From Eledone cirrhosa (Eukaryota), in contig OZ024754.1 in assembly GCA_964016885.1 (NCBI GenBank), positions 13,020,001 through 13,084,000 on the forward strand: a stretch of 64,000 bases of DNA, read 5' to 3'. Position 1 is the stretch's first letter, and the number at the start of each line of letters is the position of its first letter. Position numbers and translations under genes: made by a program. This document shows, piece by piece, positions 2,968 to 49,369 of this stretch. The notes beneath the pieces are model-generated. The model was not told the origin of the DNA and searched no databases. It saw only the letters and a program-made list of their open reading frames with translations.

Positions 2968-3169
2968 AGTAAACGAAGCTAAATTTTAATCATTTGACTT
3001 TTATTTAACTTTATTTTACACTACTCCGGAGTAACCAAACCAACCTGCGCACTTCGTCGAGTGCTCCAGCCTGCATACTGAGGTGTTGGTATACAACCAA
3101 CATAAACTCAAAATCTATCTAGCTCCCACACGGGTTGAGCGCTTCAAACAGTAGCGGACCTAAGTCACT

Positions 3170-4768
3170 ATGGATAAACTGGCAACCTTTGCGTCACTGA
3201 AGGACATCCCCCTACCTGATAAACGAGAATACACCAGGGATCTCATCAAGAGTACGGACTCCCTCATCCGTAGGATGAGATGGAAGGCGTTCCACTTCGA
3301 AAGAGGAACGCAGAAAACTACAAATACAGAAAACATGGAGTACCTTTTTCGATCAAGGAGGAATCCCCCCCACAACAGACTAATGGAGTTTGAAAACGAG
3401 ATGATTAACATCATATCCAACCTCAAATTCTCCGGAAACTCAACCAGAAGTCAGGAGTACCTCAGACACCTGAGAAACCGGATTACAGTACTTAAAGGGA
3501 CAACTGGAATACTTGTCCATGCTGACAAAACAAACAACCTCTACAACATGAACACTGAACTGTACAATAAGCTAATCCTCAGGGAACTGAGGAAGTGCTA
3601 CAAAAAAACACCTGGATTTACCCTGGATGAGATCAATGCCACAGCTTACAGGATTATATCCAGAATCGGAATAGAGGACAGGACGGCCCCATACCAACCA
3701 AGGGAGCCGCGGATTACCCTTAAAGACCACAAGTCAAACTTTGAGTCCGACTTCCCTGTCAGACTAATAGCCCCCTCCAGATCTGACCTAGGGATAGTCA
3801 GTAAAAGAATACTGGATAGGATTTTGCCCAAGCTTCGGAAGAAAACCAAATTACAGCAATGGTCATGCACGAGAGAAGTAATAGAATGGTTCAAAATACT
3901 GCATGAGAAAAGTAGGACCAGCTTTATACAACTGGACATCGCAAGCTACTACTCCTCAATCTCACCCATAGTACTTAATAAGGCCCTATTTTTAGCGATG
4001 TCCAATACGGACCTAACCCGAGAGGAGGTGAGCATCATCCACGCCGCAAGAAAGACCTTAATCCGCTTCGATGGAGACCTTTGGAACAGGAGTGACTGGC
4101 CAAATAACTTTGACATCACGATGGGCTCCAGCGACTCAGCGCAGGTAACGGACCTGGTTGGGCTCTACCTGCTGAAGCAGATAAAAGATGAAATCCCCTG
4201 CCTGGGCGGCGGATTATATCGTGACGATGCTCTATTCACAGTACATGACCACAGCACCAATATGTTGGAGGGTATGAGGAGGCGTATTCGCCATTTCTTT
4301 AAGAACCAGGGGCTCAGCATAGAAATAGACCCAAATAGGAAGGTAGTTAACTTCCTACATACCACCCTAAACCTGAACACCGAGCAATACTACCCCTACC
4401 ACAAGCCCAACGAGAAACTCGTATATGTTAACGCCAAATCAAACCACCCTAGATCCATAACCAAGGCAGTGGTGAAGAGTGTCTCGGACAGGATCTCCAG
4501 CCTGTCCGCAAGTAAGGAAATATTCAACAACCACGCGGAATATTACAACGCAGCTCTAAAGAAGGCGGCACATGGACAAAATATAACATATAGTCCGAAA
4601 AGCCGGGAGGTGGTTAGCCCAACAGACACCCACAACCGCGTTGCCAGAGGGGGAGGGCGAACGCTAACAATACAGGCAGAGCAGAATCAAATAGGCACCA
4701 TGTACCAGACACCACCACACGGGCGGTGGGGACTAGTGCGCTTGACCACGAGATGGAGCACAATATGA
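3170..4768 (+). CDS. PLE reverse transcriptase domain (N-terminal part of disrupted polyprotein)
   Basis: 532-aa ORF with SLKDIPLP..LIRRMRWKAFHF N-terminus, PVRLIAP, FIQLDIASYYSSI, ITMGSSDS, GGLYRDDAL (YRDD), VNFL, YVNAKSNHP motifs typical of Naiad/Chlamys-group PLE RTs. Confidence 0.92.
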   Translation: MDKLATFASLKDIPLPDKREYTRDLIKSTDSLIRRMRWKAFHFERGTQKTTNTENMEYLFRSRRNPPHNRLMEFENEMINIISNLKFSGNSTRSQEYLRHLRNRITVLKGTTGILVHADKTNNLYNMNTELYNKLILRELRKCYKKTPGFTLDEINATAYRIISRIGIEDRTAPYQPREPRITLKDHKSNFESDFPVRLIAPSRSDLGIVSKRILDRILPKLRKKTKLQQWSCTREVIEWFKILHEKSRTSFIQLDIASYYSSISPIVLNKALFLAMSNTDLTREEVSIIHAARKTLIRFDGDLWNRSDWPNNFDITMGSSDSAQVTDLVGLYLLKQIKDEIPCLGGGLYRDDALFTVHDHSTNMLEGMRRRIRHFFKNQGLSIEIDPNRKVVNFLHTTLNLNTEQYYPYHKPNEKLVYVNAKSNHPRSITKAVVKSVSDRISSLSASKEIFNNHAEYYNAALKKAAHGQNITYSPKSREVVSPTDTHNRVARGGGRTLTIQAEQNQIGTMYQTPPHGRWGLVRLTTRWSTI

Positions 4769-4862
4769 GTAACAGTCTCAGGCGTGACGCTAACTACCCC
4801 AGGACGGACAACCCCAACCGCAGGACACGTGTGGGGGGGGGGGGACGGGCGACCACCCCACG

Positions 4863-5846
4863 ATGGATCTCCCGGGGCGGACAACAACCACCCCACAAAT
4901 CCGGGCCGCGAAGATAACAAAAAGTATAGAGCCCAAAAGGGAAGCAACAGTGCGGAAACCACCAGCAACCCAACAAATCTCCAACAAATCACGAAGCCCC
5001 CTAACCCACACATATAGGAGGAGACACCGACAAATCACGTGGTACAACCCACCCTACTCAGCGGCCCGTAAGAAAAGCTTGGCCCGATTATTCTTTGGAG
5101 CACTTGACAAATGCTTCCCGAGGGACCACAGATACCACAGGATCTTCAACAGACACACTGTGAAGCTTTCGTAATCCACCACGAGAAATTTGGCCCAACA
5201 CATAGCTAGCATCAACAGAAGTAGGCTTAAAAACCACACACAACCAGAAGATGGCAATACAAACACTCAGCAGAACCATGTGAAAGGAGGGAAGGGGGGA
5301 CCCAGAGCCCACCCAAGAAACACAAACAGACCCAAGGACCCCCCACCGAGCATGGGGGAAGACCAACATGTAACACATAATGAGAACCCTAATCTAGGCA
5401 CGCAGAGGCCGACCACCCTCTGCAACTGCAGAAACCCCGAATCATGCCCCCTTGGTAATGAATGTCTCAAGAAGAACCTAGTGTACGGTTGTAGGGTTAA
5501 AACCCCCAACTCCGAACACCTCTACATAGGAGCCACATCAACGAGCTTTAAGGACCGCTGGTACAACCATCGCCATTCATTCAAGAAGGAGGCCAAAAGG
5601 AAAGGCACAGCTCTCTCCGACCTGATCTGGAAGCTTAAGCTGGACAGGACCCCATACTCTCTGGCCTGGTACATAATCAGGAAAGTACCACCCGATAAAG
5701 GGGGATCCTGCATATGCAAACTATGCCTGAACGAGACCCTCGAGATACTAAGAGGTGGAAGCGGCCTGATAAACCTCAGAACCGACTTCTTCGGGACATG
5801 CAGACACCTTAGAGCCAGGACCTTTCTCAAAATATATGGACAGTAG
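4863..5846 (+). pseudogene. PLE linker + GIY-YIG endonuclease (out of frame with the RT ORF; in-frame TAA at 5172-5174)
   Basis: ITWYNPPYS...IFNRHTVKLS*S, then CNCR..CPL..CL, LVY...YIG, FKDRWYNH, LSDLIWKLK, CKLCLNE, LINLR...CRH. Confidence 0.9.
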
Positions 5847-7055
5847 CAACACAAGAAGATGTGAACTCCCCTCAAGCTATAGGGACTTCTACAGAACATG
5901 AAAATACCTCTCGGCCAGACCTCCCGCAAGCTATATGGGCAATAACAACACCCTAGGTTGTGAACTCCCCTCAAGCCACAGGCAACAACCCAGGTGGAGC
6001 AGACACCATGATAGCCTAGAGATAGAATCGGACACAGCCATAATAACTTGGCCAACATCTATAACACAAACACTTTTAATTTACCAGATTTCTGACTTTC
6101 AAGTGCCAATCTTAAATCTTGATTTCTCTTTATTAATTTGTTATTTGTTTTCTGCCCTCTTCACTGTATCACCTTATATTTATTTTAAGTTGAGATAGAT
6201 TATAACACAAACACATTGAATATCTCATCTTAACATCTTGTATCATACCAATCTATCCAACATATTCTGACCTTGAGATTGGTTATAGCACACACACACA
6301 CACTTTACCCTACATTATTTCTCACTTCTCCATATACATTATCATTACTTTTTCACCAATCTCTCATTTACTCTTTATTCTTTATTCTCTATTTATTTAT
6401 TTATTTTCAAATTACACAAATTATATGAATTATTTTATTTTATTATATTATTTATTTATTTTCTGTTTTCTTCATTTATTGCCTTATATTTCTTCATATA
6501 CATGAAAGAACCCCCCACCCTCCACCCCCACCACCACCACTACGATGGTGGCGGGAGGGATGAAGAAAAAACACAAACTGGATACTTCTAAATTGTTAGC
6601 AGCAGCAAGATATAAGCTGACCACTACAACAACAACAGTACCAAAATAATGGTGGAGGTCAAATGTACTGAACAATAGCAGGCAAAAAGACTACAGGGAG
6701 CCTCACCCCAGAAAGAATTCTATAGACTTCTGACTGAGGAATGCTCTCAGAACTGAACAATGAGAAGTTTGACACTTTTTTTGATATTTTGTTCCTTTAA
6801 CACCTTGTCCCTTCTACCATTTTATAAATTTTTAAGCTAACTCCAACATTAACAACACTTAGAATGAGGAATGTTCTAATAACTGACCAATGAGAGGAGA
6901 AGGGTACCTGTGACACGAACATTCGTTTGTTTGAATTCATATGACTCCAGTTCCCCAGTGAATTAACAACCCAACAAGGAACTGGGCATATCAGAGTATT
7001 GACAATATCATACACCTAAACAACATATGTACTTGTCTATACCATACTAATTCAA

Positions 7056-48027: not shown

Positions 48028-48265
48028 TATATATATATATATATATATATATATATATATATATATATATATATATATATATATATATATAAATATATAT
48101 ATATATAAATATGTATATATATAAATATATATATATATATATAAATATATAAATATATTAAAACTTTTATACTCTGCTATGTATTGAGTACCTTACTTAC
48201 TGTGGTTACCTCCGATTCAACCAGGAATAACGTATATATATATATATATATATATATATATATAT

Positions 48266-48448
48266 AACGAAGGAAATGTGGTAACGAACCAGGTGGACCA
48301 TAACGCACCAAAGTACTCAATACTTAGGGTAGTAGAGTGGGTAATAGGAACCAGTATGACCCCGACGGGTGAGCTCAAGCCGTTTCGACGTCCAGAATTA
48401 GCCGTCGAAACGGCTTGAGCTCAGCCGTCGGGGTCTTACTGGTTCCTA
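48266..48448 (-). mobile_element. Family D micro fold-back element
   Basis: Tail 48266-48345 then arms ~48345-48390/~48403-48448. Confidence 0.8.
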
Positions 48449-49165
48449 TATATATATATATATATATATATATATATATATATATAAATATATTATGGAA
48501 TACTGTTGGCTTTTCGCTACAATGTTTTCTATACTTTTCATTTATATATAAATATATATATATATATAAATATATATATATATATAAATATATATATATA
48601 TATATATATATAAATATATATATATATATATATATATATATATAAAGACATACACAGACAAAATATGTTTTATTCTACACAAGTAGAAATGTAAATACAT
48701 AAAATACATTTAAGGTCTTTGAACAATTTTTTTTTTATCTCATAACTCAAAAAATGCAATATGACGAAACTTACTATATTGAATCACGGGTTTACCGGAA
48801 ATGAGATTTTGAATGTAAACCCGACATGCTCTATAACCTCCGGAAAATCCACAAGAGCGAAACAATAAATGATTCGTTTAGAGAATTCACTTCAATATTT
48901 ATCGGCATACAACACCCAACTGTCTCATTTCATGTCGTAAATATCTATACTACGATTTCACATAAATATGAATTAGAATTAGAAAGAACGGAATTGTGAC
49001 TAGAGAAATTTCCAGACGATCTAACCGATCGAATTGAGAAGACATTCTCTCCATACAAAACAATTAATAATTATTTCACTTTCAATGACAGCATTTAAAG
49101 AGGCATACACACACACACACACACACACACACACACACACACACACACACACACATATATATATA

Positions 49166-49369
49166 TAGGAAAATGTATGACACTGACGGCAGAGCTCAAG
49201 ATATTTCGACGGCTATTTCTGGACTATTTAGTCCAGAAATAGTCGTCGAAACGGCTTGAGCTCTGCTGTTGGGGTCATACATTTTCCTATTACCCACTCT
49301 ACTACCCTAAGTATTGAGTACTCTGGTGCGTTATGGTCCATCTGGTTCCTTACCACATTTCCTTCGTTA
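49166..49369 (+). mobile_element. Family D micro fold-back element
   Basis: Arms ~49166-49225/~49229-49289 plus tail; further family D fragments at ~14955-15098, 49445-49505, 55408-55470, 58205-58265, 59443-59548. Confidence 0.8.

Follow-up and report, generated by a model that had tools for sequence, protein, structure and literature searches.

A 64,000-nt stretch of Eledone cirrhosa DNA (GenBank assembly GCA_964016885.1, contig OZ024754.1, positions 13,020,001 to 13,084,000; hereafter the window) carries a small stem-loop, ACTC paired with GAGT, in the one-sided tails of many repeated elements, which raises the question of what kind of element this hairpin belongs to and what it does there. 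The initial annotation took it for a signal shared with an autonomous Naiad whose proteins mobilise the other elements in trans. Our analysis assigns the autonomous element to the Hydra clade of Penelope-like elements (PLEs), finds the hairpin, often doubled, in the leaders of its relatives, and places the ends of inserted copies just before one hairpin or the other. We consider it probable that each hairpin docks the element's reverse transcriptase (RT) and thereby fixes one internal start of copying, which would explain the odd one-sided tail of Hydra-clade PLEs, telomerase-related retrotransposons found in marine animals.

The autonomous element, Hydra-1, begins with an inverted, 5′-truncated copy with a tail (2030-2722, minus strand), followed by a pseudo-long terminal repeat (pLTR), the open reading frame (ORF), a long 3′ untranslated region (UTR) and a second pLTR, the unit measuring about 4.1 kb. 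A second insertion of this type, Hydra-2, contains an endonuclease remnant (24248-24484), a hammerhead core (26546) and a hairpin (26632-26656). Their features are the following.

2030..7159, plus strand: Hydra-1 insertion (Hydra-clade PLE) in (TA)n, delimited by self-BLAST and sequence
2077..2119, minus strand: hairpin 1 within the tail of the inverted Hydra-1 copy, 50 nt from (TA)n
2913..2967, plus strand: putative hammerhead-like motif in the pLTR, read from the sequence (core CTGAAGA, stem II, GAAA, stem III reduced)
3023..3065, plus strand: Hydra-1 hairpin 1, preceded by 4-6 nt by the short end (3016-3018), which is visible both at 7159 and in reads
3122..3143, plus strand: Hydra-1 hairpin 2, GCTC/GAGC form, 99 nt after hairpin 1 and 26 nt before the ATG
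[quoted passage not shown]
23834..26711, plus strand: Hydra-2, second Hydra-type insertion, up to the tail in (TA)n

The Hydra-1 hammerhead-like motif has the core together with stems I and II, stem III being reduced, and the tail end of the element (3112-3114) lies 7-9 nt before hairpin 2. Interrupted by an in-frame stop and frameshifts, the ORF nevertheless encodes RMRWK, HADKTNN, CNCRNPESC (CxCX5C), CKLC (CxxC) and CRH (CxH); no CxxC lies between the GIY and YIG halves, i.e. the GIY-YIG core is devoid of CCHH cysteines. A C-terminal GIY-YIG, RWK, DKT, a CxCX5C linker, CxxC and CxH are diagnostic of the Hydra clade (PMC8557442), and because the RT-first, GIY-YIG-last order and these motifs agree with those diagnostics, Hydra-1 is, on the evidence of its sequence, a Hydra-clade PLE. 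Its identification as a Naiad is contradicted by a GIY-YIG that is C-terminal instead of N-terminal, and by HADKTNN (DKT) in place of DKA. Naiads resemble the window element in their (TA)n target, inverted copies and tail, but differ from it in having an N-terminal endonuclease, DKA and CxC and no canonical hammerhead, although the hammerhead core is found in some Naiads as well (PMC8557442). The window element matches the Hydra clade as described in the same paper in domain order, motifs, (TA)n target, hammerhead, pLTR, inverted truncated copy and one-sided tail; it departs from that description in size, owing to its long 3′ UTR (the clade tends to be shorter than 3 kb), and in its tail, given there as 30-40 bp and here 58-99. 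The RT part has no family in Pfam, its predicted fold (pLDDT 89.8) has telomerases (TERT) as the nearest structures, and in a tree with 31 relatives it forms a long branch, with a best identity of 42%.

Relatives retrieved with an alignment of 49 proteins comprise 78 metagenome loci (from the best 80 of 340 matches) and 11 genome-contig loci, together forming 67 DNA clusters; no relatives were found on viral contigs. In these relatives, one hairpin stands some 45-70 nt behind the hammerhead core and a second, about 60 nt away, just before the ATG. Among the 35 families whose sequence reaches 300 nt upstream of RWK, 32 carry one hairpin and 24 carry two, as against one hairpin in 4 of 169 ORF segments and in 8 of 35 antisense stretches, and two in none of these controls. 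(Stricter pairing or other anchors gave 22 of 28 and 26 of 29 families; 32 of 35 is the count adopted.) Likewise, a strict descriptor applied to the 89 loci gave 96 sense and 5 antisense matches, compared with 0.95 in shuffles. The spacing of the two hairpins is 58-71 nt in 24 of 25 families and 83 nt in the remaining one, with 99 nt in Hydra-1, and hairpin 2 stands 13-41 nt before the ATG. The enrichment and positional constraint that the initial annotation anticipated in a larger family set are thus both present, with a fixed offset to the element ends. Its expectation that Naiad pLTRs share the motif found no support: with ten motif strings searched across the PMC8557442 supplement, a search limited by line breaks and by the variants that it covered, no match reads as this hairpin in a Naiad pLTR or elsewhere in the Naiad or Chlamys files, and four do so in Hydra consensi. 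By eye, these four are in three published consensi, namely Hydra-2_Amil, Hydra-2_Ajap and, twice, Hydra-1_Ajap.

Loci L079-L089, from genomes G001-G005, are animal Hydra PLEs in bins filed as bacteria; G001 has many such contigs, which amounts to contamination. Pattern matches in G005 (7 versus 4 in controls) were dismissed as chance in GC-rich bacterial DNA. In one locus (L102:1501-1620), two types of hairpin 1 lie 96 nt apart; past the end of the first tail, the sequence continues as that of a related family, likely through a template switch.

If the hairpins direct copying, the ends of inserted copies should reflect their position. A comparison of two-hairpin leaders with other copies yielded 26 ends: all 11 that are flanked by TA or CA runs, drawn from 8 families, precede hairpin 1 (five) or hairpin 2 (six) by 0-6 nt, and nine of the other 15 lie within -6 to +12 nt of a hairpin. 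Because alignments run on through TA microhomology, the actual ends may lie a few bases 5′ of these positions. Short elements of the window are fold-backs inserted in (TA)n, with an inverted arm, a direct arm that usually has a hammerhead-like core, and a one-sided tail with a hairpin; 12 of 12 short arms end at most 9 nt from the hairpin (for the three lowest values, 4-5 nt by exact extension), and the tails measure 69-99 nt. Moreover, tail length equals hairpin spacing, and it is the spacing that varies between families while the end offset stays constant. In public reads, Hydra-1 copies pass into (TA)n behind 3018 (in contigs) and behind 3118 (423 and 435 raw reads), and copies of the short family B do so behind 49290 (784 and 802 reads). 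Raw-read depth is about 1,300 over the Hydra-1 tail and 4 just behind it, and although these are RAD libraries, so that depth is not copy number, the drop suggests that most insertion events are short.

For hairpin 1, TAT or ATA occurs between -10 and -2 in 20 of 23 cases (controls, 3 of 21), and for hairpin 2 in 18 of 25 (controls, 7 of 25). This TA-rich stretch at both ends, and the location of hairpin 2 shortly before the ATG, would also be expected if the hairpins served mainly translation or packaging and AT-rich stretches alone set the ends; the entire pLTR is AT-rich, yet repeat-flanked ends are confined to two places, and we regard such a role as very unlikely.

In the window, which is microsatellite-rich and whose named protein matches come from Argonauta and Octopus, all 15 sites first reported for the motif are present, the one placed at 48173 actually starting at 48171. 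Their description needs some amendment. The wording ACTC..GAGT(G/A)C fits 12 of the 15, whereas 14869 and 47620 read GAGTGT and 15038 reads GAGTTC; the placement 40-90 nt before a TA junction agrees with the 38-65 nt between hairpin end and TA run at the 14 short-element sites, but not with site 3023, which lies within the 5′ pLTR with no TA run nearby and whose tail copy is the inverted one at 2119-2077. The flanks resolve the elements, described as otherwise unrelated, into about ten lineages, but several sites are near-copies of one family. At 14 of the 15 sites, a 2-nt bulge (TC, TT or TA) on the 3′ side is accompanied by a second, variable inner stem, which varies in step (CA/TG, TA/TA, CG/CG, TG/TA); the bulge at 14534 is only 1 nt. 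A structured descriptor finds 15 matches on both strands of the window, compared with a mean of 0.14 (maximum 2) across 200 block shuffles; the match at 36257, which lies antisense to an endonuclease frame unrelated to these elements, looks like chance. Hairpins beyond those first reported are at 2119 (-), 48338 (-), 3122 (the second hairpin) and, in GCTC/GAGC form, 26632 and 19701, with decayed copies near 18741 and 59470. The short-element hairpins are as follows.

14161..14183, plus strand: hairpin 1 in fold-back tail, family A
14534..14556, plus strand: variant hairpin with 1-nt bulge, element D, without visible hammerhead
14869..14896, plus strand: hairpin 1 in fold-back tail, family C
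15038..15064, plus strand: hairpin 1, family B variant
15184..15220, minus strand: hairpin 1 behind a hammerhead-like motif, element E
19701..19737, plus strand: GCTC/GAGC-form hairpin in the tail of fold-back F, preceded at 3 nt by the short end
29575..29597, plus strand: hairpin 1, family A
30682..30708, plus strand: hairpin 1, family B
43641..43663, plus strand: hairpin 1, family A
43814..43840, minus strand: hairpin 1, family C
44181..44208, minus strand: hairpin 1, tail of a separate fold-back
45179..45206, plus strand: hairpin 1, tail of another separate fold-back, with a hammerhead like that of family A
47618..47640, minus strand: hairpin 1, family A
48171..48192, plus strand: hairpin 1 with tail only and no body, element G
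48312..48338, minus strand: hairpin 1, family B
49296..49322, plus strand: hairpin 1, family B; in reads, many copies pass into (TA)n at 49290

Two perfect hairpins of ACTCG/CGAGT form (33037, 51218) were rejected, as was a match at 53028: they have no bulge and lie outside tails. An internal negative control is provided by a PLE-like family at 28116, 36499 and 43384, which follows a different endonuclease type and whose tails have no hairpin. A GIY-YIG remnant at 35853-36890 (also 28116-28619 and 43384-43437) has CxxC-type zinc motifs and its own hammerhead core, and is of a type that we take to be Neptune-like.

Across families the hairpin has a common architecture: RCUC pairs with GAGY, followed by a two-base bulge, the first base of which is U, and then by a covarying stem. 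Among 82 distinct cores picked by sequence alone, the first inner position is paired in all (54 C-G and 28 U-A; at most 0.85 in shuffles), only the register with a 2-nt bulge pairs (0.87 versus 0.21-0.34 for others), and on the RT tree the first inner pair changed six times, at least four of them forced. The core is nearly invariant (the first bulge U in 56 of 56, G in 56, A in 55, G in 56), while the second bulge base is free and the inner length ranges from 7 to 24 nt. In reads of family B, the places with at least 5% of other letters comprise a single one of the 16 stem bases, two loop positions and the second base of the bulge. Since the stem covaries and the bulge is fixed, and given the variable inner length, a double-stranded promoter palindrome is disfavoured; the cis-signal proposed at the outset is borne out as a conserved signal tied to element ends, but hardly as a promoter site of that kind. 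Neither SECIS nor known ribozyme classes have matching cores by eye. Rfam covariance models gave no match at E<=1 at six loci, where they missed the hammerheads too and are thus of limited sensitivity, and the 150 matches listed of 584 in the window are miRNA-like or similar noise below the gathering score. Hairpin 1 in the window is mostly ACTC/GAGT, a form rare elsewhere (3 of 126), the relatives having mostly GCTC/GAGC. Stem III of many Hydra hammerheads is itself ACTC/GAGT, like the outer stem of the hairpin (near 15290 on the minus strand, in L013 and L014, and in several from PMC8557442 File S2), and alternative pairing between ribozyme and hairpin is conceivable.

The core positions of the Hydra hairpin match those of the arginine sandwich of HIV TAR and 7SK ASM3 (Pham et al. 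2018, PMC6189040; PMC7583470). In both, a paired purine precedes the bulge, the first bulged base is an invariant U, and G-C, A-U and G-C pairs follow, which in TAR/7SK are the positions A22, U23, G26, A27-U38 and G28 (PMC6189040). The invariance of the first bulge U and the freedom of the second base fit the prediction of a base triple plus spacer. Unlike in TAR/7SK, the loop of the Hydra hairpin closes on the other side of the bulge and a conserved RCU follows; we treat the match as a resemblance only, without implied ancestry. Conserved arginines in RMRWK and in RxR before WFNPP are candidate partners of the hairpin. That an RT sister to telomerase reads twin TAR-like hairpins, one per active site, each setting a UA-rich template on a nicked (TA)n strand, is a tentative idea that we would rate as rather unlikely in this full form.

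How could such hairpins produce a one-sided tail? Under the docking that we favour, the hairpin would act as RNA, bound by the RT-endonuclease protein; the endonuclease would nick both (TA)n strands, each nick priming one start, aided by pairing with the UA-rich stretch. A start before hairpin 1 would give the short arm, one before hairpin 2 the arm whose tail holds hairpin 1, and head-to-head joining of the two cDNAs would yield the fold-backs, which would predominate if copying usually stops within a few hundred bases. For full-length pLTR-ORF-pLTR copies, the template would have to be tandem or circularised by the hammerhead, and the window's short families would mostly be end-copies of several Hydra lineages, some perhaps non-coding. 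A precedent exists in Poseidon_Ac (Frangieh et al. 2024, PMC11167929), a PLE for which, in vitro, both target strands were nicked and extended, two internal RNA starts bound the tail and the RNA 3′ of the starts was required. As in Hydra, two starts bound the tail; however, Poseidon_Ac belongs to another clade, its binding motif is undefined and its starts lie within the ORF in an AC-rich stem loop without target homology, whereas Hydra ends lie in the 5′ leader, where UA-rich stretches precede the twin conserved hairpins.

The same two end positions would be predicted if the hairpins instead set RNA 3′ ends, by cleavage or termination just before each, with ordinary end-primed copying to follow, and RNA-seq of Anolis does show RNA ends at the tail (PMC11167929). 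But hairpin 1 is left uncut in every tail, and the Poseidon protein began internally on a longer RNA (PMC11167929), which makes this explanation distinctly unlikely in our judgement.

Several observations weigh against docking as the explanation. The Poseidon start site has no homology to the target, and hammerhead cleavage is dispensable there (PMC11167929). Six of the 26 ends lie far from any hairpin, and three of the 35 families have none, one being degenerate, one 5′-truncated and one likely mis-anchored by eye; among the published consensi, also by eye, the hairpin of Hydra-1_Crog is degenerate and Hydra-1_Obim and Hydra-1_Amil have no clear hairpin in the consulted part of the PMC8557442 supplement. 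For families A-G, family B included, no two-hairpin source is found among 24 listed of 577 loose read ends. The hairpins are weak (mean -4.5 and -3.5 kcal/mol) and fold alike in sense and antisense, and the conserved RCU behind the stem is unaccounted for by the model. Finally, in 90 cores G-U (16) and A-C (17) mispairs are balanced, so that this test of the strand is neutral; only the window families lean to G-U, by eye about 7 versus 0-1, against that neutral count.

The absent G-U bias would be expected of hairpins that act as DNA, guiding, in single-stranded cDNA or a displaced strand, the cutting or resolution by GIY-YIG at the adjoining TA-rich stretch. The motif GAG-YR-CTC is nearly palindromic, and reverse-complementing the usual form gives the one common in the window; in PMC8557442 the tail is attributed to resolution by the endonuclease, and on plasmids the tail was required by the endonuclease of Drosophila Penelope (cited in PMC11167929). 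Plain double-strand recognition is, however, excluded by the inner length of 7-24 nt, the covariation and the fixed one-sided bulge, and in the single PLE tested, the places corresponding to both ends are RT starts on RNA (PMC11167929); hence we view action as DNA as unlikely.

The origin of the short families is a separate matter. Trans-mobilisation, as first proposed, is not needed to account for them: a pattern search of genome G001, the bin with animal DNA, gave 31 matches versus 1 control, and among 13 hairpins listed from 12 of 29 new loci, 10 are followed by (TA)n within about 28-41 nt. Several of these short-copy hairpins are identical or almost identical to the hairpin 1 of a coding family. 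Short copies that look dissimilar can thus derive from the ends of different coding families, and shared descent with 5′ truncation suffices. That the short families are instead true non-coding elements borrowing Hydra proteins via the shared hairpin is compatible with docking as a mechanism and differs in origin; we hold it possible though doubtful. The arms of families A-G have no coding remnant by tblastn, although truncation predicts the same of arms this short; element D, without visible hammerhead, has 204 nt of its 5′ body in common with E but a different tail; different bodies occur in reads on the family B tail; family B fold-backs have a common centre; and the ACTC/GAGT form of hairpin 1 prevalent in the window is, as noted, rare elsewhere. 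Set against this, tail copies retain hairpin 1 only and could not regenerate a tail, the end of Hydra-1 itself is about 300-fold deeper than its ORF in raw reads, and the window holds three further Hydra-type endonuclease remnants, besides the G001 short copies that match coding families. We give true non-autonomy of some families roughly one chance in three. Animal non-LTR retrozymes (bioRxiv 10.64898/2026.07.22.740005) are, like the window elements, short, hammerhead-bearing and pLTR-related, but they form head-to-tail tandems, with no hairpin or tail mentioned in the consulted part of that preprint, whereas the window has head-to-head fold-backs with a tail.

In addition to that of Hydra-2, Hydra-type endonuclease remnants lie at 28795-29050 (+) and 61141-62053 (-), in copies that end in (TA)n; no hairpin is seen downstream of these two, as expected of short-end or truncated copies. 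The hammerhead stretch 2906-2985 is joined in reads to many different flanks on both sides, and is thus common to several families. Abundant short Hydra-1 fold-backs turn at the palindrome TCATATGA (2794-2801), visible as loose ends and strand joints in reads; it may be the RNA start or an annealing site of two cDNA ends. Four tail-bearing elements are nested at 14287-15602, where D and E, despite their common 5′ body, differ in hammerhead and hairpin. At 59444-59545 and in reads, some family B copies start 1-2 nt from the predicted hammerhead cut site.

The PLE clade, its tail and two internal starts are already known. The twin hairpin was not found in searches of open-access literature or in the consulted parts of PMC8557442, PMC11167929, PMC4209133 and bioRxiv 10.64898/2026.07.22.740005, and the main text of PMC8557442, the paper on Hydra, uses neither 'stem-loop' nor 'hairpin'. 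PLE protein-RNA recognition, the inverted arms and the one-sided tail are stated as open in PMC8557442 and PMC11167929, and a motif that is short, doubled and clade-wide, and that stands at a constant distance from both ends, opens the origin of the PLE tail to direct testing. Under the tentative full reading with twin TAR-like hairpins, a portable 25-nt tag would set the copy start and explain both tail and fold-back, and any RNA with two tags would be insertable. The hairpin also serves as a marker by which the abundant unlabelled repeats of cephalopods and cnidarians can be classified, allows comparison with RNA anchoring in telomerase and may be usable as a programmable start tag.

Two other kinds of repeat are present in the window. 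A SINE-like high-copy family of about 190 nt, unrelated to the motif, occurs at 15852-16252, 20392-21218, 31815-32005 and 63407-63814, and decayed non-LTR RT fragments (RVT_1 at 9927), together with repeated ends that have a perfect small hairpin, lie at 9924-11837, 53469-55413, 58759-59247, 32722-33062 and 50903-51243.

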